Positions 25,572 through 34,628 of a stretch of 64,000 nt of DNA are shown piece after piece. The DNA comes from Thermoproteota archaeon (GTDB taxonomy: Archaea; Korarchaeota; Korarchaeia; Korarchaeales; Korarchaeaceae), in the NCBI GenBank assembly GCA_026986575.1, contig JALSOH010000004.1:288001-352000 (forward strand), in the 5' to 3' direction. Numbering within the stretch: position 1 is the first letter of the stretch; each line of letters starts with the position of its first letter. Both the position numbers and the translations under genes were made by a program. The notes beneath the pieces are model-generated. The model made no database searches. It was not told where the DNA came from and saw only the letters and a program-made list of their open reading frames with translations.

Positions 25572-26516
25572 GTGATGCCTATGGACAGACTGATCACGAT
25601 AGCCCTCGGAGGCAACGCTCTCCTTCAATACGGTCAGAAGGGGACCTTCGAGGAGCAGCTGGCTAATGCTAGAAGGACGAGTAAGCAGCTGGTGGAACTC
25701 CTCAGGAGGGGATACAGGTTGGTCATCACCCACGGTAATGGGCCCCAAGTAGGTGCCATACTCCTCCAACAGGAAGCGGCTACCGACCAAGTCCCTCCCA
25801 TGCCCCTCCACGCCTGCGGAGCTATGAGCCAAGGGCTCATAGGATACATGATCCAACAGTCTATGATAAACGAGCTCAAGAGAGCTGGGATGGATGTACC
25901 TGTCGCCACAGTGGTCACTCAGGTACTCGTAGATAGGGAAGATCCGGCGTTTCAGAACCCAACCAAGTTCATCGGACCGTGGTATCCTGAAGAGGAGGCG
26001 AAGCTCAAGGAGGAGCAGGGGTGGGTTATGAAGTACGATGTAGGCAAGGGTTGGCGGAGAGTTGTACCCTCTCCGGATCCCATAGGACAGGTGGAAATAG
26101 AAGCGATCAGGAGGATGGTGGAAGCGGGAATAGTGGTGATAGCATCTGGAGGGGGAGGGATCCCCGTCGTCGACGATGGAGAATACGAGGGAGTGGACGC
26201 TGTAATCGATAAGGACCTAGCTGGCGAGAGACTGGCCACCTCGCTGAATGCCGACCTCTACATGATACTCACTGACGTGGAGAAGGTAGCGATAAACTTC
26301 AAGAAGCCCAACCAGAGATTCTTGGATGTCATGACGCTGGAAGAGGCCAAGAGATATTATGAGGAGGGACACTTCCCACCGGGGAACATGGGTCCCAAGG
26401 TCAAAGCTGCCATGAGGTTCGTGGAGAGGACAGGCAGGGAAGCCATAATAACGAGCTTGGACAAGGTCATTGAAGCGCTGGAAGGCAAGACGGGTACCAG
26501 AATACTCCCAAAATAA
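25572..26516 (+). CDS. arcC: Carbamate kinase
   Basis: IALGGNAL, THGNGPQVG, GGGGIPV, VIDKD. Confidence 0.95.
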   Translation: MMPMDRLITIALGGNALLQYGQKGTFEEQLANARRTSKQLVELLRRGYRLVITHGNGPQVGAILLQQEAATDQVPPMPLHACGAMSQGLIGYMIQQSMINELKRAGMDVPVATVVTQVLVDREDPAFQNPTKFIGPWYPEEEAKLKEEQGWVMKYDVGKGWRRVVPSPDPIGQVEIEAIRRMVEAGIVVIASGGGGIPVVDDGEYEGVDAVIDKDLAGERLATSLNADLYMILTDVEKVAINFKKPNQRFLDVMTLEEAKRYYEEGHFPPGNMGPKVKAAMRFVERTGREAIITSLDKVIEALEGKTGTRILPK

Positions 26517-26526
26517 ATTTAGGGGC

Positions 26527-27810
26527 TTAAAGCCCCAAGACATCCTCATATCCCTTCAGGTCCAGCAACCCATGTCCGGAGAAGTTGAAGAGTATAACCT
26601 TCTCCTCACCCTCTTCTTTAGCCTTCAGCGCCTCATCTATTGCCGCTTTCACCGCGTGGGTAGTTTCCGGAGCTGGGATCAGACCTTCAGTCATGGCAAA
26701 TATCTTCCCGGCCTTAAACACGTCCTCTTGTGGGTAAGCAACTGACTTGATCACTCCCTTGGACTTCAGAAGGCTCACCGTCGGAGCGGCACCGTGATAC
26801 CTCAGACCACCAGCGTGTATAGGTGGCGGCACGAAGTCATGCCCGAGTGTGAACATCTTGATGAGAGGAGTCACCCCAGCGCTGTCTCCGAAGTCATACC
26901 TGTACTCCCCCTCCGTAAGTGAGGGAGACGCCCTCGGCTCCACTGCTATAACCTCGTACTCCTCCCTTCCACTTAGTATCTCCTCTATGAAGGGGAAAGT
27001 GAGCCCAGCGAAGTTGCTCCCGCCCCCAACACATCCTATGAGCACATCTGGCTTCTCGCCCAAGATTTCCATCTGTTTCTTGGCTTCTAGTCCTATTACT
27101 GTCTGATGCAGTATCACGTGATTTAGAACGCTTCCCAGCGAGTACTTCGCTTTCTCGTCCTTCATCGCCGTCTCTATTGCCTCACTTATGGCTATGCCTA
27201 AGGAGCCTGGGTGGTTCGGGTCCTGTTCAAGGTACTTCCTGCCGATTTCGGTTCTGTCGCTCGGCGATGGGACGATATCCGCGCCGTAGAGTTTCATAAC
27301 TAGCTTTCTATAGGGCTTCTGTTGGTACGAGATCCTGACCATGAAAACTAGGGCCCTCAATCCCATCATCGAAGTCGCGTAGGACAGCGCACTTCCCCAC
27401 TGCCCCGCACCCGTCTCGGTCGTCAGGTACTCAAGACCCTCCTTGGCGGCACAGAAGGCCTGCACTAATGCGGTGTTCAGCTTGTGGCTTCCTGTCGGAG
27501 TCACATCCTCTCTCTTGTAGTATATCTTAGCCGGAGTCCTAAGATATTCCTCCAATCTCTTGGCCCTGTACAGGGGTGTGGGCCTACCGATCCTCACGTA
27601 AAACTCCCTGAGCTCCTCGGGTATCTTGATGTACCTCTCCTTGGAGAACTCCTGATCCACACACTCCTTCGGGAATAAGGGGTAGAAATCCTTAGGTCCC
27701 AGTGGCTCCTTCGTCGCTGGATGGATGGGTGGCGGTAGATCGGGCAGATCTGAGACTATGTTATACCAATAGGTAGGTATCTCCTCTTGGCTGAGATCTA
27801 CCCTTATCAT
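26527..27810 (-). CDS. trpB2: Tryptophan synthase beta chain, type 2 (stand-alone)
   Basis: [43 protein letters not shown]; no trpA adjacent. Confidence 0.95.
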
Positions 27811-27938
27811 CTGAGTACACCTCCCTCTGAGGAACTGGACGGGTCACTGGACGATCCGGATGTGGCATGGAACGCGGGCATGATGACAATTGCCTTAGAC
27901 AAGGAGAGAGGAGATCTCTTCAGAGGTCTCTCAAGGCC
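27807..27938 (-). other. +1-frame extension of the Trp leader peptide (43 codons, no Trp codon), stop overlaps the trpB2 start (ATGA)
   Basis: GGC CTT GAG ... GTA CTC AGA TGA read by hand; the other two frames close within 12 codons. Confidence 0.6.
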
Positions 27939-27954
27939 AAACTAGATCCCCCAT
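27931..27954 (-). CDS. Leader peptide MGDLVWP (Trp-sensing uORF)
   Basis: ATG GGG GAT CTA GTT TGG CCT TGA with SD GGGGGTG 5 nt upstream and TATA-like TTTTAA at 27999-28004. Confidence 0.75.
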   Translation of the reverse strand: MGDLVWP

Positions 27955-28067
27955 ACTTGCACCCCCTAGAACGGGTTGGGTCGGGGGACCTTCAACAGTT
28001 AAAAGCATTACTGTACAGGGAACTCCGCACAGGTTGCTGGATCCCGATCTCCAAGGAGGCATTCGAT

Positions 28068-29363
28068 ATGGAGAAGCGGAATATCATAATACTCTCACTG
28101 GTTGGATTCGTCATATCCCTGGGATTCGGTGCTATATCTCCAATCCTCCCCTACTACGTGGTCTACTTGGAGGGAGGGATAACTGAGCTCCCCGAGGAAC
28201 TGGGCGTCATCGAGCATGCCTCCCAGTACGCCGTGGAGTATGGTCTGATGATGTCCGCGTTCATGCTAACCCGGGCCTTCTTCGCTAGGTACTTCGGCTC
28301 CCTCAGCGATAGAGTTGGAAGGAAGAAGTTGATAACAGCAGGCTCGATCATATATTCGCTTCTGGCCTATGCGTACATCCTTTCCTCGAGCGTTTACGAC
28401 CTTTATGCTATCAGAGGCCTTCAGGGAATTGCTTCAGCCATGGTCTGGCCCGTCGCCGAGGCATTGCTGATGGACAGCGTTCCGAGCGGGATGAGGGGGA
28501 GATCCATGGCGATATACATGACCTTGACGAATCTAGCAATGATTGGGGGTCCAGCCATAGGCGTGGGTATCTACAAATTAGGTATCCACATATTGGGGAT
28601 AAGAGAGGTTGAACAGGCGCTCAAGTTCCCTTTCATCGGCTTAGCGTTTATATCGGCGTTCTCCATTCTCTTCTCTTTACTACTCAAAGAAGATAGAGTG
28701 GAACTCGCTAAAAAGGCGATGGATTCGCTCAGAGCAGATGTCAGACCTCCCAAATCCATCAGAAGAAGCATAAACACGATTTATGTTATGGCATTGGCTA
28801 ACGGATTTGCGATGGGATTCATAGCCCCAATAATGAGCCTCTACATAATACAATTCATTTCGTCGGACCCGGCCGCAATTGCAGTGGTCACCACGATCTC
28901 TGGGCTCTTTGGATTAGCAGCTGCCTACCCTGGAGGGAGGTTGAGTGACAGATTTGGGCGGAAACCACTGATCTTGATAGCTGGGGTCTTCTCACGTCTC
29001 ATGACCCTGCTTATACCCACCGCTAGAGATGTCGAGGGACTCACAGTCATATCCACCATCAGATCCGTCGCATTCAACATGTACATACCCTCGTTTAGAG
29101 CGCTCCAGGCTGATATAGCCCCAAAGAGCATAAGGGGGAAGGTGTTCGGGACAGTGCAAGCTATGTTCAATGTTGGAGCGGTTTTGGGACCGATAGTTGG
29201 CGGCCAGCTCTACAAAGACTTCGCTCCTCGGATCATACAGGTTGGGGGTATCGTCCTACCGGGTGCCGCGCTATCTTTCATAGCCAGCGCTTCCATCGGA
29301 TTGTTCAGTCTGCTATTGTTCGCTCTGTTCGTGGAAGAGCCAGCTAATCCCCAAGGACAGTAA
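28068..29363 (+). CDS. MFS transporter
   Basis: GSLSDRVGRK and GRLSDRFGRK; start moved to ATG 28068 behind AGGAGG. Confidence 0.9.
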   Translation: MEKRNIIILSLVGFVISLGFGAISPILPYYVVYLEGGITELPEELGVIEHASQYAVEYGLMMSAFMLTRAFFARYFGSLSDRVGRKKLITAGSIIYSLLAYAYILSSSVYDLYAIRGLQGIASAMVWPVAEALLMDSVPSGMRGRSMAIYMTLTNLAMIGGPAIGVGIYKLGIHILGIREVEQALKFPFIGLAFISAFSILFSLLLKEDRVELAKKAMDSLRADVRPPKSIRRSINTIYVMALANGFAMGFIAPIMSLYIIQFISSDPAAIAVVTTISGLFGLAAAYPGGRLSDRFGRKPLILIAGVFSRLMTLLIPTARDVEGLTVISTIRSVAFNMYIPSFRALQADIAPKSIRGKVFGTVQAMFNVGAVLGPIVGGQLYKDFAPRIIQVGGIVLPGAALSFIASASIGLFSLLLFALFVEEPANPQGQ

Positions 29364-29748
29364 CTATTACCTTTCTAGTGCGTGGATGGGTGTCCACTTC
29401 AACCCATATGATGCTCTGCCAAGTTCCCAATGCTAGAGATCCGCCGATCACAGGGAACACCTTACTGGGTTCCATTAGGATGGATCTGAGATGGGAATGC
29501 GCATTTATAGGGTGCTTGTATCCAGCGCCACGGGGGATGATCCTCTCAAGGGCCTCACTTAAATCCTCTAGCAGGGATGGATCGTTCTCGTTGATTATAA
29601 TGGCCCCGGTAGCGTGGGGCGCAAAGACCACGGCTATTCCATCTCTAATTCCGCTCTTCTCAACTATCTCCTGAACATTATCTGTTATATCGATGAAGTT
29701 GATCTCCCCGCCCGTCTTGAATGAGAAGGTAGATGTAACTACCTTCAA
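29344..29748 (-). CDS. yjbQ: YjbQ/UPF0047 family protein
   Basis: DITD, PHATGA, NAHSHL, LGTWQ; start TTG behind GGTGA. Confidence 0.9.
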   Translation of the reverse strand: MKVVTSTFSFKTGGEINFIDITDNVQEIVEKSGIRDGIAVVFAPHATGAIIINENDPSLLEDLSEALERIIPRGAGYKHPINAHSHLRSILMEPSKVFPVIGGSLALGTWQSIIWVEVDTHPRTRKVIVTVLGD

Positions 29749-29793
29749 GGTCCACTCACCTCGCACCCAAAACGCGGTAAAATGTAAATCTTC

Positions 29794-30495
29794 ATGGGGG
29801 TTCCACAGCCTGTGGGGCTGAGGGAAGAGGCTCTGAGGAGCATCCACCTCCTAGTGAGCGGTAGATGGGACAGGATCCCAGACAGCCTCCTCTCATACTT
29901 CGAGGAGGAGCTAGGAGGGGAGGACCCATGCGGAGACCCAGTTGGAGTGGCCTTTCTCCTCATAAAACTCGGGGTGAGCCCCGAGAAAGCGATAGCGCTC
30001 CTCGATTGGAAGGATTTCGAGGGATTATGCGAGAGAGGACTTCAAATATCCGGATTTTCCACTAAGAGAGGTCTTCGATTCACACTACAAGGAAAGAGGT
30101 ATGAGATAGATGTAGTGGCTTCCGACAATGAGGTGACACTGGCTCTCGATTGCAAGATGTGGTCGAAGGGAAGCTCTCCCAAGGTTTACAAAATACTTGA
30201 GGCTACCGAGCACCAATATATGAGGACAATAGCCCTGAAACAAGCTATTGAACGACGCTTATTAGAGGATGTTCATCCAAAGCCAGGACATGGTGTCCTA
30301 GTACCGTGTGTCGTCACTTGGCTAGATTTCGGCACCAAACTATCTAAATCAGGTGTCCCCATAGTCCCGATTTCCAAGTTCCCTTCCTTCGTGAACGACA
30401 TCAGATCCTTCTTAGAAGGGATAGCTGCCTTGGAGGCCAATTTCAGGGTTAAGATTGGGAGAGAAGCTTCCTCACAGCATCGGTTACCCCTCTGA
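29794..30495 (+). CDS. PD-(D/E)XK restriction-endonuclease-like protein
   Basis: WKDFE, YEIDVVA, ALDCK. Confidence 0.75.
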   Translation: MGVPQPVGLREEALRSIHLLVSGRWDRIPDSLLSYFEEELGGEDPCGDPVGVAFLLIKLGVSPEKAIALLDWKDFEGLCERGLQISGFSTKRGLRFTLQGKRYEIDVVASDNEVTLALDCKMWSKGSSPKVYKILEATEHQYMRTIALKQAIERRLLEDVHPKPGHGVLVPCVVTWLDFGTKLSKSGVPIVPISKFPSFVNDIRSFLEGIAALEANFRVKIGREASSQHRLPL

Positions 30496-31735
30496 GGCTC
30501 ACAGTCGTTCTCGCCTGCTCCGTGTAGAGCGTGACGGTTTCGGATTCTTCCTCCTTGGGACCCACGAACGCCATGATTTCAGCCCCCAATTTACGAGCGT
30601 ACTCCCTCTGACCTGACTGGCTCCTTCTCATCAGATCGAGGGAAACGTAGAACCCTCCTCTCCTCAGAATCTCAGCGACCCTCCAAGCGTATTTCCAGCT
30701 ATCCCTCTTGACGCTGATCACGAACACCTGCACGTAACTCCTCTCATCCAAGTTGAAGATCCCGAGCTCCAGTCCAGCATCGATGAGTCGCTCAACGCCC
30801 ACGCTCACTCCAGTAGCCGGGACATCTCTGTTAGAGTACATGCCAATTAGCCTGTCGTATCTTCCACCCCCGGCCAGTGAACCTATTCTGGGCTCCCTAA
30901 CCACTGTCTCGAACACAGGTCCGGTGTAGTACTCAAGACCTCTAACCAGCGACAGGTCGAAGATCAGTCTCTCATCACCTACTATAGAGAAGATCTCCTC
31001 CAAGTGTTTGAGTGCCTCGGAAACAGCTTCATTCCTCATCGAGCTCAAACCCTCGACCATTTCGGAGAACCGGCCCCTCTTGGAGATGAGGTCCATTATT
31101 CTATCGACCAGATCCTCATGCATTCCCTTAGATAGGAGCTCTGCCCTCACTCCTCCTTCACCGATCTTGTCCAGCTTATCTATAGATCTGTAGACGGGGA
31201 TCGGATTGGAAATACCGAGTTCCTCCTCGAAGACGCCCGTTAGGAGCCGTCTGTCGTTCAATTTCACTGTGAAATCCCTGAAACCGAATTCCCTCATTAC
31301 CTCGATGTTCAGGCTTATCACCTCGGCGTCGGCCTCGGGATAGGGGCTGCCCACCACATCCGCATCGCACTGCCAGAATTCCCTGTACCTACCTCTCTGA
31401 GGTTCCTCGTGCCTCCATACTCTCCCTATGTGATACCTCTTGAACGGTAAAGGCGTCTCCGGGTGCATGGCCATGTACCTAGCTAGGGGAAAGGTAAGCT
31501 CGTACCTCAAGGTGTACCACTCCTTGCTGAGGAAGTCCGGAAATATGAACATGAGCCGGCTCTCTGCCTCCTCACCCAATTTGCCCTTGACGGTCTCCCA
31601 GTACTCCAATGCGGGAGTCTCGAACGGGTCGAAGCCGTAGCGCTTGAACACCTCCTCTATCCTCGACATGATTCGCTTCCTTAGGATCATAAATGGAGGG
31701 GGGAAGTCCCTGAACCCCCTCGGTATTGAGACCAA
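30449..31735 (-). CDS. hisS: Histidyl-tRNA synthetase
   Basis: PRGFRD, WRHEEPQRGRYREFWQCD, VRGLEYYTG, GGGRYD, GVERL. Confidence 0.96.
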   Translation of the reverse strand: MVSIPRGFRDFPPPFMILRKRIMSRIEEVFKRYGFDPFETPALEYWETVKGKLGEEAESRLMFIFPDFLSKEWYTLRYELTFPLARYMAMHPETPLPFKRYHIGRVWRHEEPQRGRYREFWQCDADVVGSPYPEADAEVISLNIEVMREFGFRDFTVKLNDRRLLTGVFEEELGISNPIPVYRSIDKLDKIGEGGVRAELLSKGMHEDLVDRIMDLISKRGRFSEMVEGLSSMRNEAVSEALKHLEEIFSIVGDERLIFDLSLVRGLEYYTGPVFETVVREPRIGSLAGGGRYDRLIGMYSNRDVPATGVSVGVERLIDAGLELGIFNLDERSYVQVFVISVKRDSWKYAWRVAEILRRGGFYVSLDLMRRSQSGQREYARKLGAEIMAFVGPKEEESETVTLYTEQARTTVSLRGVTDAVRKLLSQS

Positions 31736-31746
31736 AATTTTCCACC

Positions 31747-32890
31747 CTAGGCTGCGAGCACCTGCTCCCATATATCGTTGATCTTGGCTCTCTTCTCGTC
31801 GGTCATCACTGGAGATAGATACAACCTCTTCATGAGGTCAGGTGGAGGTATGAGAGCGGGCTCCTCAGCCAGCTCAGACGGGAGGAGCTTCTTGGTTGCC
31901 GGTATGGGCATCGCTATGTAGACGGAGATCGTCTTGTAAGCCGCCACCAGCGGATCTATGAGGTAGTTTATGAGAGCTTGGGCGGCCTCCGGATTAGGAG
32001 CATCCTTGGGGACGAGCAGGTTGTCTATCCAGGCTATCGCTCCCTCCTCCGGAATCAGGTACGATATGTTCTTGAACCCGTCGCCGTACTTCATAGTGAG
32101 CACATCCCCGTTGTAGGCGTGGGCGGCCAGCAGAGACCCGTTCTCTAATCCCGGTAGGTACTTGTCCGTGCTGAAGTAACCCGCTATATACGGTTTCTGC
32201 TTAATGAGGGCCTCCTTAACCTCCTCCATCGTGGAATCACTCCAGTCATCTAATTCCTTTCCTAAGTACAGTTTGGTGGCGAACACGACCTCAGGCGGAT
32301 CCTCCAGCATAGAGAACTTCCTCTTATACTTCTGCAAGTAATTAGGATCGAAGAATTGCTTCCAACTCCTCAGATCCTTTACCTCGTCAGAGTTGAGTCC
32401 TATGGCCGTACTACCGAATCCATACGGGACCGAATAGTTGTTCCCAGGATCATATTCAAGTTCCCTGAACTTGGGATCCAAGTACTTCAGGTTGGGAATA
32501 AGCTCCTTATCCAGCTTCCTGACGTATCCCCTCTCTATGGCATTTCTCACGTACTTATCGGTGAGCACCACAATGTCGTAGCCGCTCCCACCCGCCTCGA
32601 GCTTAGCAAATGCTTCATCATCACTGTCGAACACATCATAGACCACTTTGACGCCAGTCTCGTCCTTGAAGAGCTCGAAGACGAAGGGGTTGTTGTTATT
32701 GCTCCAGTCGTACATGGCGACCTTCCCAGAGAGCTCTCTCTTGGCCTCGCTCGCTTCCCGCTCAACCTTCGCCTGAGAGACGGAAGATCCATAAAAGTAG
32801 CCGACAGAACCACCGACGATTAAACCGGCAGTCCCAACGACTGCTAACTTGATGAAATCTCTCCTAGAGGTGAACTAAATCCCCCATCAT
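31747..32890 (-). CDS. PotD/PotF-family solute-binding protein with Tat signal; needs a +1 frameshift near 32872 (about 380 aa)
   Basis: Body YDW..FKDETGVKVVYD, YSVPY, IPEEG..WIDN; frame extends to TSRRDFIKLAVVG... but has no start codon and is closed by TAG at 32877-32875; MMGDLV lies in the adjacent frame. Confidence 0.85.
32864..32890 (-). CDS. Leader peptide (M)MGDLVHL (His-sensing uORF)
   Basis: ATG ATG GGG GAT TTA GTT CAC CTC TAG, SD GGGGTGA, ATGA overlap with the hisD stop. Confidence 0.7.
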   Translation of the reverse strand: MMGDLVHL

Positions 32891-34170
32891 GTCACCCCGT
32901 TGCTGGGGCCTGTATCAGGCCCCTTATAAATTTTTCCTCTAACCTCGGCGGATCTGGCGTGGTACTCCAACCCCTCCAACCTAGCGAACTTAGCGACCCT
33001 CTCGGAGATCGAGGCTTGGGCCTCTAGGGTCCCACTCTGCCTGTAAACATATATTCCAGAGAAGTCCCTGAAGAACGAGAACGGGCTAAGGCCAGGCCTC
33101 TCCGTCAGGGTACCTCCAGTGGGCAGGATGTGATTCGCTCCCGTGTAACCGTAATCACCGTACACTACTCCTACGCCCTCGAATACGGCTCCAGCTAGCC
33201 TTGCATCGAATTTCCCCATTATCTCCAGATGTTCAGGTGTGAAAACATCGCTGAAATTCTCCAAGGATCTCTTGTCCCCATACAGTATGCCGCCCCTCTC
33301 CATGAGGGAAGAGACCCTCCCATCCCCCGAATATTTATCGAGCTCCTCTCTCAGCCTGAGCGCCAGTTCCCTAGAAGTGACGAGGACTAGAGAAATGGAG
33401 TCGGGTCCGTGCTCCGCTTGAGCGAGCATATCCATGACCACGAACTCGATGGGAAAGCTACCATCGTAGAGAATGAGAACCTCCGACGGTCCCGCTAGGA
33501 GATCTATTCTCACATCCCTCGAAACGACTGCCTTGGCAGCTGTCACGTAGGAGTTCCCGGGTCCCACGATCATATCAACTGGCTCTAGGCCGACTTCAGG
33601 AAGTCCGTAGGCGAGAGAAGCTATTGCTTGGATCCCACCAACTCTCAGAACCTCATCTATGCCCAGTCGGGCAGCCAATCCTTCTATAAGTCCGGAGTTC
33701 CTAGGAGGCGTAGCCACGACGAATTCTTCAACTCCCGCCGCCCTAGCGGGGGCTATTGCCATAAGCAGGGAGGAGGGGAGGGGGTGCCTGCCCCCAGGAA
33801 CGTAGACACCGACCCTCTTCACAGGCTCCGATACCTTATCCTCCCTTATCCACTCCAGTCGGGTCTTGAAACCCCCAACGAAGCATTCCCTCCCATCCAA
33901 CAGGGATACAGCGCAGGTGTATAACCTCTCGTAGGGCTCTAACACGAATTCGTCTACTCTGTAGTCATGCGGGGCTCCATATACCTCCTCCTCGGCTAAT
34001 CTAATCCCGTCGAATTTCTCGGTCAGATGTAACACACTTTTCAGTCCTCTCTCCCTCACCTCACTCACTAGGCTGGCGGCGACCTCGACTGGTAAGCTGA
34101 TCCTCTCGCGGAGCTTGGAGAAGGCTTCATTCCAGAGCTCCCTTACGTCACCGAAGAGGGCCAGTTCCAT
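32887..34170 (-). CDS. hisD: Histidinol dehydrogenase
   Basis: GVYVPGG, GGIQAIA, GPGNSYV, AGPSE, AQAEH, PEHL, GDY..GANHILPT, H at LEYHARS. Confidence 0.88.
   Translation of the reverse strand: MELALFGDVRELWNEAFSKLRERISLPVEVAASLVSEVRERGLKSVLHLTEKFDGIRLAEEEVYGAPHDYRVDEFVLEPYERLYTCAVSLLDGRECFVGGFKTRLEWIREDKVSEPVKRVGVYVPGGRHPLPSSLLMAIAPARAAGVEEFVVATPPRNSGLIEGLAARLGIDEVLRVGGIQAIASLAYGLPEVGLEPVDMIVGPGNSYVTAAKAVVSRDVRIDLLAGPSEVLILYDGSFPIEFVVMDMLAQAEHGPDSISLVLVTSRELALRLREELDKYSGDGRVSSLMERGGILYGDKRSLENFSDVFTPEHLEIMGKFDARLAGAVFEGVGVVYGDYGYTGANHILPTGGTLTERPGLSPFSFFRDFSGIYVYRQSGTLEAQASISERVAKFARLEGLEYHARSAEVRGKIYKGPDTGPSNGVT
32905..32936 (-). promoter_or_regulatory. Internal BRE/TATA at the hisD 3' end followed by a perfect 8-bp inverted repeat
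   Basis: GAAAAA-TTTATAA (32936-32924), then GGGGCCTG-ATA-CAGGCCCC (32923-32905). Confidence 0.55.
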
Positions 34171-34247
34171 AGGCGAGGATCCCGTGAATCCCGTAATAAG
34201 CTTGATGTGGAGGAGAGCTTATAACGTCGTGACAACCTCTCTCCAAG

Positions 34248-34628
34248 ATGAGTACTGTAATACAGGCGCTCTTTGAGACGGTGAGGACCCTGTCACTCGC
34301 TGGGGAGTTCCTTCCCGAGGACAGGCTCTCCTCGATAGTGGACCTCATGGCTAGGATCTACGTGGAAGAACTTCCTATCACGGATAAGACCTCTTTTCTG
34401 GAGAGCTTCGAGCTAGTTAAGAGCGCCATACTGGCTAAACCGCCCACAGATGAGGATGAGGATATAGTTAGGCTTGCGACTTACAACCTGAGGCAGATGG
34501 AGGAGAAGCTTGGACTGGATCAGGACAAGCTCAGGGACATTTTCCTCAGGAGAATAGAGGAGGATCTGGGAGAGAACCTAGCTAACCTAGTGACCCTATT
34601 CGAGAGATCTATAAGGGCCTTGGGCTAG
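34248..34628 (+). CDS. Hypothetical alpha-helical protein
   Basis: 126 aa ORF with host-like codon usage, TATA about 25 nt upstream. Confidence 0.65.
   Translation: MSTVIQALFETVRTLSLAGEFLPEDRLSSIVDLMARIYVEELPITDKTSFLESFELVKSAILAKPPTDEDEDIVRLATYNLRQMEEKLGLDQDKLRDIFLRRIEEDLGENLANLVTLFERSIRALG

Follow-up and report, generated by a model that had tools for sequence, protein, structure and literature searches.

The 64,000-nt stretch analysed here (the window throughout), from contig JALSOH010000004.1 of a Thermoproteota archaeon of the family Korarchaeaceae, carries between hisD and hisS a gene for a PotD/PotF-like solute-binding protein whose reading frame has no start codon of its own and is preceded, one base out of phase, by a very short leader open reading frame (ORF). 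This gene is probably intact and expressed through a programmed +1 frameshift inside the leader, at a site built like that of the release factor 2 gene (RF2, prfB) in which a hungry histidine codon would replace the stop codon. The same cassette, with a Trp, Cys or His codon at the equivalent position, would control trpB2, trpS, cysS and the hisG operon in this lineage. We lean towards the wider view that the archaeal phylum uses a modular translational sensor of tRNA charging, namely an RF2-like +1 cassette with a cognate sense codon in place of the stop, and that this sensor precedes synthetase genes (trpS, cysS and, via the binding-protein gene, hisS), trpB2 and its SerK-like partner, the hisG operon and an uptake protein.

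A leader and a gene in two reading frames

All coordinates are positions in the window, and the binding-protein locus lies on its minus strand (Table 1). Frame A, that of the leader, reads ATG (32890-88), ATG (32887-85), GGG, GAT, TTA, GTT, CAC, CTC and TAG, whereas frame B, one base out of phase, reads TAG, TTC, ACC, TCT, AGG, AGA and onwards, encoding FTSRRDFIKLAVVGTAGLIVGG... and the rest of the binding protein. The first-pass annotation of this DNA had described a twin-arginine translocation (Tat) signal in a frame without a start, closed by TAG and lying +1 relative to a MMGDLV leader; the sequence bears this description out, and the arrangement is the same at all 13 orthologous loci that we compared. 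Because the frame-B TAG closes the frame upstream of the signal, no start codon is available to it, and its earliest ATG, GTG or TTG is the ATG at 32715, downstream of the signal peptide. The span 32890..31747 measures 1144 nt, or 381 codons plus one base, and if GTTC is taken as a single step it yields one product of 380 residues, in line with the joined protein of about 380 aa that had been proposed. The proposed ATGA overlap with hisD is present here, where the first leader ATG overlaps the hisD TGA (32889-87), but it turns out to be specific to one clade; other clades carry only the second ATG, and we therefore regard 32887 as the conserved leader start. The Shine-Dalgarno sequence noted for MMGDLV is also there (GGGGTGA, complementary to the 16S rRNA 3' end ...GGATCACCTCC), as is the close spacing to hisS, which begins with TTG 11 nt past the stop of the binding-protein gene.

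In the mechanism that we propose, ribosomes would initiate at the ATG at 32887 and decode Gly-Asp-Leu-Val. With GUU in the P site, the GGGGAU located 3 nt upstream would pair with the 16S rRNA tail in the geometry of the RF2 frameshift. As long as His-tRNA is plentiful, CAC would be decoded and termination would follow two codons on at UAG, so that no binding protein would be made. When His-tRNA is scarce, the A site would remain empty, the peptidyl-tRNA-Val would slip from GUU to UUC and translation would resume at ACC (MGDLV-TSRRDF...), while any earlier slip would be aborted by the +1-frame TAG of leaders of the GGGGAT-YTA type. Ribosomes completing the binding protein would then stop 11 nt before hisS and probably boost its translation. 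The post-slip ribosome would enter the gene directly in the case of the binding-protein gene, trpS, hisG, cysS and a SerK-like ORF; alternatively, as at trpB2, it would cross a bridge ORF to reach the start codon of the next gene.

Conservation of the disrupted layout

Full-length orthologues of the binding protein were found in 8 of the 31 related genomes searched, besides the window's own, each with an open frame of exactly 375 codons, and further records assembled by other groups were added through a scan of genome contigs. The resulting comparison set comprises 13 orthologous loci from 11 genomes (11 distinct sequences with 83-97% protein identity). An identical 24-nt leader, from ATG to TAG, and the same two-frame layout occur at 13 of 13 loci, so that the orthologue check suggested in the first-pass annotation recovered the disruption at the same His codon every time; all 11 genomes of the genus that carry the binding-protein gene share the leader. 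Its invariance stops exactly at the TAG, beyond which the codons are AGG AGA, AGA AGG or AGG AGG. Outside the leader, invariant residues are encoded by 255 codons, of which 16 (6%) are unchanged in all sequences, and no invariant run exceeds 8 nt. The leader is the best conserved stretch of the locus.

The segment carrying the twin-arginine (RR) motif, T-S-R-R-D/E-F-L/I-K, changes only synonymously or conservatively (GAT/GAA, TTC/TTT, CTC/CTT/ATC) and is therefore translated in frame B, where 374 codons are free of stops in all 13 loci. The codon that follows this segment, at which gene callers place the start, is ATG, TTG, TTA or CTG depending on the species: ATG or TTG in 7 of the 11 distinct sequences, TTA in the window and in two relatives (L008 and L009), and CTG in another (L006). 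As the first-pass annotation had foreseen, public gene calls truncate the protein (322, 363 or 366 aa), and the RR motif is absent from all of them.

The surroundings are equally constant. The hisS gene lies 11-13 nt downstream of the binding-protein stop in 11 of 11 distinct sequences, and hisD adjoins the binding-protein gene in every genome that has it. A TATA box (TTTATAA) inside the 3' end of hisD, about 35 nt 5' of the leader start, is kept across all 11 distinct sequences despite differing flanks, and its position would make it the promoter element of the leader. In L008 and L009 the hisS start position is occupied by CTG, with an in-frame TAA before it, whereas the other species have TTG; this suggests that hisS translation in these two depends on re-initiation after the binding-protein gene.

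A sister leader and its bridge before trpB2

The genome contains just two short MGDLV ORFs, the His leader and a second one about 5 kb away, which reads ATG GGG GAT CTA GTT TGG CCT TGA and lies 144 nt 5' of the ATG of trpB2 (27810). The exact 18-nt leader is unique in the genome, and the wider family described below emerged only with looser patterns. The trpB2 leader occurs in 21 of 21 genomes of the genus, 11 of which also carry the His leader, and MGDLVW was present at 30 of 30 loci inspected across the family and a sister family; a reversed-pattern control gave 0 matches in the genus and 2 across 43 genomes of the phylum. Together with a +1 frame that is open up to the trpB2 start, this recurrence supports the earlier argument that the likeness between the two leaders speaks against a random indel.

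In each of the 21 species of the genus, the start codon of the leader is in phase with that of trpB2, 102-159 nt away, and the +1 frame after GTT remains open for 30-48 non-conserved codons until its TGA either overlaps the trpB2 start (ATGA) or falls 1 nt after it. Between the Trp codon and this TGA, the 21 species hold 72 stops in frame 0 and 42 in frame +2, against none in frame +1. Shuffling gives a chance of 0.10-0.41 for an open +1 frame per single sequence and, since the species are related, these probabilities are not simply multipliable. Even so, the spacers occur in eight lengths, each divisible by three, and in several sequences that bear no relation to one another. The RNA of the trpB2 leader and spacer folds worse than its shuffles (z +2.4), which speaks against a hairpin switch and is consistent with translation of this region.

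Beyond this genus, the shifted frame holds a longer ORF. A +1 ORF of 151-163 codons follows the trpB2 leader in 5 of 5 genomes of a second genus, in a single genome from a sister family and in three other genera, and ends as ATGA, GTGA or TTGA on the trpB2 start. Its relationship is to SerK, an ADP-dependent serine kinase, whose model NF053625 it matches below cut-off (E 1e-21 and 1e-16). In nine of these sequences (L081-L086, L088, L089 and L091) the ORF was noted to have a ParB fold and the motif DGHHR. This SerK-like ORF appears to have shrunk to the 30-48-codon bridge in the window's genus; in L090, from another family of the same order, a SerK-like gene has an ordinary ATG and no leader. 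The product of SerK is O-phosphoserine (PMC5120207), and TrpB2 enzymes use O-phosphoserine (Busch 2014, as cited in PMC11917138), so that the pairing of a SerK-like gene with trpB2 makes metabolic sense. The trpB2 leader itself occurs in variants with synonymous changes (ATG GGT GAC CTA GTT TGG), with a longer N-terminus (ATG AAT GTA GGG GAT CTA GTT TGG) or with another peptide and CTT as P-site codon (ATG GGT GGT TTA CTT TGG).

A family of cassettes with cognate codons

We scanned the genome for short ORFs containing GG.G[AG][CT]NNN[GC]TT, which gave 898 motif matches, 24 of them in short ORFs. Three of these lead, in the +1 frame, into the hisG operon, trpS and cysS (Table 1; leader peptides are written without their stop). 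Across species, the hisG leader, with a His codon, was found at 4 of 4 loci; the trpS leader, with a Trp codon, at 21 of 23 loci, encoding peptides as varied as MPGDFLWP, MQGGSLWR, MGDRLWRRENC and MPSGDVFW; and the cysS leader, with a Cys codon, at 17 of 26 loci, all in the window's genus, the codon preceding its CTT being freely variable. Five gene families thus carry the cognate codon at the A-site position: W for trpB2 and trpS, C for cysS, and H for hisG and the binding-protein gene. In one genus (g15) the trpS leader lies about 100 nt upstream of the gene and its +1 frame forms a bridge of 29-30 codons that ends just past the TTG start of trpS, which is the trpB2 bridge architecture repeated.

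Filtering for a start codon, a short ORF, TT before the cognate codon and an open +1 frame left 39 distinct cassettes of the form GG(G/U)G(A/G/U)Y, three free bases, (G/C/U)UU and then one sensing codon. Positions -9, -8 and -6 are occupied by G in all 39 and position -4 by a pyrimidine, neither of which the filter imposes. The P-site codon is GTT in 18, CTT in 18 and TTT in 3, and the next base is always T or C; the E-site codon is free to vary, as is the leader peptide. The sensing codon is always cognate to the gene in the +1 frame across the 39 versions, and most leaders hold a single cognate codon at a fixed position. All five leader families have just one feature in common, a P-site (G/C/U)UU followed by the cognate codon in the A site, and this supports the joining of frames at GTT-C-ACC, with the His codon as trigger, that had been proposed for the binding-protein gene.

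Several other matches were rejected as leaders: VMVLGDVLW at C4:409995 forms the C-terminal end of a longer ORF, the matches at C8:12578 and at C6 + 218986 (oriented index) lie inside genes, and VERGLVIRI, VGDSFFWLAVR, MGDGIAAG, VGDSIEFRWR and MGGLLQ... have no sensible +1 target. One further candidate short ORF, MRGDALG (G000 C6 near 133023, minus strand), overlaps the start of a LivG-like ABC ATPase gene lying in its +1 frame and has a TATA box about 27 nt upstream. A metagenome scan with ATGGGGGATYTAGTT returned at least 115 stretches from at least 80 loci; among the 82 matches listed, 18 fall in short ORFs, mostly by chance. One metagenome contig (L190, oriented position 298) carries the same 15-nt leader followed by TGC TAG (MGDLVC), a TATA-like box upstream and, in the +1 frame, a winged-helix-like ORF of 77 codons, and may represent a Cys-sensing leader before a regulator.

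Proposed shift site, predicted rRNA pairing and RNA structure

The 3' end of the 16S rRNA reads ...GGAUCACCUCC. Its predicted duplex with the 14 nt preceding the P-site codon has an energy of -8.6 to -11.3 kcal/mol in the five leader variants tested, which places all five within the top 2-9% of in-frame coding positions; the His leader, with its GGGGAT, stands at the weaker end of this range (-8.6 kcal/mol, top 9%). From its sequence and spacing, this internal element may act as the stimulator of the shift. The tRNA re-pairing from GUU to UUC would be tRNA-Val(GAC), and the Val, Leu and Phe tRNA genes found for the P-site codons of the family are all of the ordinary kind.

A stable structure of the leader RNA is not supported. 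In a consensus fold the Shine-Dalgarno GGGGTGA is predicted to form 7 bp with TCACCTC at 32873-32867, a pairing that is full in five of eight sequences and has one or two broken pairs in the other three. The UCACCUC at these positions spans the shift site and mimics the 16S rRNA tail. The consensus fold of the His-leader region is no better than that of shuffled sequences (z -1.9; 11 of 200 shuffles as good), Rfam yielded no RNA family in 26000-34500 at E up to 1, and neither approach detected terminator or antiterminator hairpins.

Weighing the alternatives

The ribosome might instead shift at the leader stop, skipping the U of CUC-UAG to give MGDLVHL-RRDF..., with a level that would be constitutive or set by the efficiency of termination and not by His-tRNA. 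Such a product would retain the RR motif, and slow stop codons do drive RF2 and antizyme frameshifting according to the pertinent sections of a 2016 recoding review (PMC5009743). Although CAC CTC TAG is invariant in 11 of 11 distinct sequences, this is also expected from two overlapping coding frames followed by a nearby zero-frame stop. In the sister leaders, by contrast, both the codon after the sensing codon and the stop vary (TGA, TAA or TAG, 1-7 codons past the sensing codon), so that it is not the stop that stays constant across leaders. Re-pairing from CUC to UCU would moreover be poor, and a paralogue on contig C6 with an ordinary start begins M-TSRREFLK, which matches the ...V-TSRRDF product and not ...HL-RRDF. 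We thus consider a shift at the stop codon unlikely. Equally unlikely is a scheme with no frameshift at all, in which the leader would be a regulatory upstream ORF acting by stalling or occlusion and the protein would start at a weak codon inside frame B, without its RR motif. Public gene calls do begin there (MAVVGAAGL... or MGAAGL...) or at a later Met, and the candidate start is ATG or TTG in most of the distinct sequences; the TTA or CTG that replaces it in several species shows, however, that it is not a conserved start. The segment upstream of it is conserved with synonymous changes and scores as a Tat signal, and an upstream ORF would leave the stop-free +1 frame before trpB2 in 21 of 21 species unexplained. 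The failure of either leader's RNA to fold better than its shuffles (z +2.4 and -1.9) also argues against attenuation by a hairpin switch.

A one-base break without a start codon is what a recent indel is expected to look like, and annotation pipelines treat such a gene as broken. A pseudogene or a sequencing or assembly error is nevertheless so improbable here that we rejected it: the identical break recurs in 11 genomes from different groups and assembly programs, contigs of an independent run (X2, depth 23.5) and of the probable source run show the leader site without an indel, the frame stays free of stops in every locus and the leader is the most conserved stretch. Restoration of the frame in the RNA, whether by transcriptional slippage, by editing or by removal of a short 3n+1-base intron, or else by a tRNA that reads four bases, would yield the same protein as the shift at GUU, and some archaea do splice protein-coding mRNAs. 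Against these possibilities, the site has no homopolymer, the G5 run precedes the +1-frame TAG so that slippage there comes to a dead end, a mere 11 nt or so separate the two TAGs, Rfam gave no match in the region, and three P-site codons (GUU, CUU and UUU) would require three special tRNAs, the tRNA genes found being ordinary ones; we regard these possibilities as very unlikely. Other routes into frame B were discarded outright: decoding of TAG as an amino acid, given that TAG is an ordinary stop that terminates 145 of 799 long ORFs, the binding-protein gene included; a -1 shift from the third frame, where there is no conserved start; a +1 slip on the G5 run, which runs into the +1-frame TAG; and hopping to a downstream CTC, which would remove the RR motif and whose codon is ATC in the window.

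Several points weigh against a shift at the hungry His codon. From the binding-protein gene alone, where CAC CTC TAG is invariant as well, a shift at CUC-UAG is possible, and GUU re-paired to UUC leaves a first-position mismatch. The leader carries one sensing codon, a smaller number than in classical attenuation at hisL and trpL. Leaders of the GGTGAY type (cysS, trpS, hisG and one trpB2 variant) contain GTG in the +1 frame, or the gene has its own ATG, so that those genes could start normally; a strict need for the shift is limited to the GGGGAT-YTAG type, that is, the binding-protein gene and trpB2 in most genera. Counts across species overstate independence, as the species are related. Finally, the protein belongs to the polyamine-type PotD/PotF family, which is not a known histidine-binding family, and the physiological sense of a control by histidine therefore rests on the gene neighbourhood.

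The binding protein and its possible role

The binding protein matches PF13416 (SBP_bac_8; E 1e-29) and, far below their equivalog cut-offs, the PotF/PotD models NF007962 (E 2.5e-53) and NF007048 (E 7e-45); these profile matches support membership of the PotF-PotD family and leave the ligand aside. Its N-terminus scores 17.9 bits with the Tat-signal model TIGR01409 (cut-off 16.7), and the genome encodes TatC (PF00902, E 1.6e-49, G000:C6:46758-47483). None of 24 PF00528 matches places a permease beside the binding-protein gene, which has no permease and ATPase genes adjoining it; the closest permease pair flanks the paralogue on contig C6, which is 51% identical.

HisG scores above cut-off in only 4 of the 21 genomes of the genus. 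A histidinol dehydrogenase family protein is present in 13 of them, including all 11 with the binding protein, and the 8 genomes without it, some of which are incomplete, also lack the binding protein. The constant company of hisD hints at histidinol salvage: judging from this neighbourhood, the binding protein may import histidinol or a related imidazole amine, which HisD would convert to histidine, and histidine-limited cells would switch on both this uptake and hisS. In related species without the binding-protein gene, hisS has its own TATA box and an ordinary start, and no His leader was found directly 5' of hisS in them; the leader and binding-protein module was therefore inserted between hisD and hisS. 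The His leader was probably copied from the trpB2 leader, with exchange of the sensing codon.

Other features of the locus

The positions of all features are listed in Table 1. Between the TATA box and the Shine-Dalgarno sequence lies an inverted repeat, GGGGCC-TGATACA-GGCCCC, at a position where relatives carry different palindromes (GGCTACC..GGTAGCC in L009, for example); its role may be that of an operator or of a 5' hairpin. The region between trpB2 and hisS (27831-30495) encodes an MFS transporter (plus strand), a UPF0047 protein (minus) and an Mrr-like protein with a restriction-endonuclease domain (plus).

Table 1. Features of the binding-protein and trpB2 loci in the window, and of three further leaders in the same genome
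Feature	Position	Strand	Details
hisD (histidinol dehydrogenase family)	32887..34170	-	PF00815; directly upstream of the binding-protein gene
TATA box TTTATAA	32924..32930	-	predicted; inside hisD 3' end, ~35 nt 5' of leader start
Inverted repeat	32905..32923	-	between TATA box and Shine-Dalgarno
Shine-Dalgarno of leader, GGGGTGA	32892..32898	-	complementary to 16S rRNA 3' end
Leader ORF MMGDLVHL	32864..32890	-	8 codons, two N-terminal Met codons; stop TAG 32866-64
Internal Shine-Dalgarno-like element GGGGAT	32879..32884	-	ends 3 nt 5' of P-site codon
Frame-B (+1) TAG	32875..32877	-	upstream of shift site; kept in every GGGGAT-YTA-type leader
Proposed shift site	32870..32875	-	GTT (P site, 32875-73) + CAC (His, A site, 32872-70); skipped base C 32872
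Binding-protein main frame	31747..32871	-	374 codons + stop; entry at ACC 32871-69; closing TAG 31749-31747
Tat motif SRRDFIK	32868-32848	-	frame B
hisS (histidyl-tRNA synthetase)	30449..31735	-	TTG start 31735, 11 nt past binding-protein stop
Sister leader MGDLVWP	27931..27954	-	ATG 27954; GTT 27942-40; TGG 27939-37; TGA 27933-31
+1-frame bridge ORF	27807..27941	-	43 codons post-shift; TGA 27809-07 overlaps trpB2 ATG 27810-08
trpB2-like tryptophan synthase beta gene	26527..27810	-	PF00291, E 3e-40
Leader MTGDPVHR	G000 C7 near 17402	-	leads to hisG operon in +1 frame
Leader MTGDLLWP	G000 C6 near 448431	+	leads to trpS in +1 frame
Leader MGDGLC	G000 C4 near 734598	+	leads to cysS in +1 frame

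Significance and comparison with known systems

To our knowledge, archaea have no T-boxes, no classical attenuators are known in them, and how they match the expression of synthetases and amino-acid pathways to tRNA charging is largely unknown. In the literature that we searched (titles and abstracts), we found no description of such a leader, of MGDLV or of a starvation-frameshift system in archaea. The relevant section of a 2021 review of archaeal recoding lists a single proven -1 frameshift and, for cellular genes, none in the +1 direction (PMC8211752). If our reading is right, this would be the first +1 programmed frameshift in archaeal cellular genes and the first natural regulatory use of hungry-codon frameshifting, and the cassette would do the job of the bacterial T-boxes and attenuators. 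The cassette, some 18 nt long, would be a portable element whose amino-acid specificity is set by one codon, which makes it directly amenable to reporter assays and a possible synthetic sensor. The finding also matters for annotation, since public gene calls strip the binding protein of its export signal. Standard gene calling would be expected to miss the leaders and bridge ORFs likewise.

Among known systems, the attenuators trpL, hisL and pheL/pheST share with the cassette a very short leader ORF with codons for the amino acid that is made or charged downstream, and the use of the ribosome as a sensor of tRNA charging. They differ in having runs of sensing codons instead of a single one and hairpins, which we did not detect here, and in that their output is transcription read-through, whereas here it would be a change of reading frame. 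The CCC_UGA frameshift of pheL is regarded as incidental in the 2016 review, as far as its section on this leader goes (PMC5009743). The ermC leader, in the account given there, resembles the bridges of trpB2 and of the g15 trpS in that the shift sends ribosomes into a spacer and activates the next start (PMC5009743), unlike the cassette in that the bridge here ends exactly on the start codon and, at the binding-protein gene, the shifted frame is the gene itself. A further difference lies in the ermC trigger, an antibiotic (ketolide), and in its shift, which goes in another direction. In the antizyme +1 frameshift, as would be the case here, the shift is both sensor and effector of a circuit of small-molecule homeostasis, and the polyamine link that antizyme shares with a gene of a polyamine-binding family is a coincidence; the antizyme shift takes place at a stop, responds to polyamines and relies on a pseudoknot or the nascent peptide, none of which was seen here.

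Closer in its mechanics is +1 P-site slippage under scarcity of the A-site tRNA, as in the hungry-codon frameshifting of Gallant and at the CUU_AGG_C site of Ty1 (described in the corresponding sections of PMC5009743 and PMC8211752). Hungry-codon shifting is known as an error or laboratory phenomenon, unlike the proposed cassette, and Ty1 uses a constitutively rare tRNA, not a regulatory sensor. The passage of the 2016 review devoted to hungry codons knows of no such frameshifting that yields proteins with a starvation-specific function (PMC5009743).

The closest parallel is RF2. As in prfB, a short zero-frame ORF precedes a +1 main product that lacks its own start, and the shift codon is preceded, at a distance of a few bases, by an internal Shine-Dalgarno-like sequence, here in 39 of 39 cassettes. 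The spacing in prfB is also 3 nt, in the form AGGGGG-UAU-CUU-UGA. The P-site codon can in both cases re-pair one base on (the TT being required by our filter), although at the binding-protein gene GTT_C leaves the first-position mismatch. RF2 sites are CUU_U, rarely UUU_U, stimulated by a 5' Shine-Dalgarno sequence, and they too would have in common with the cassette a slowly decoded A-site codon as sensor, according to the RF2 section of the same review (PMC5009743). The differences are that GUU also serves as P-site codon here, that the shift would occur at codons 5-8 and not at codon 26, that the host is an archaeon, and that one cassette serves several unrelated genes. Above all, the A site here is occupied by a sense codon (CAC, UGG or UGC) and not by UGA, and charged tRNA would be sensed in place of a release factor; because that codon is not a stop, the cassette is best described as a variant that would work like prfB, and not as a member of its class.

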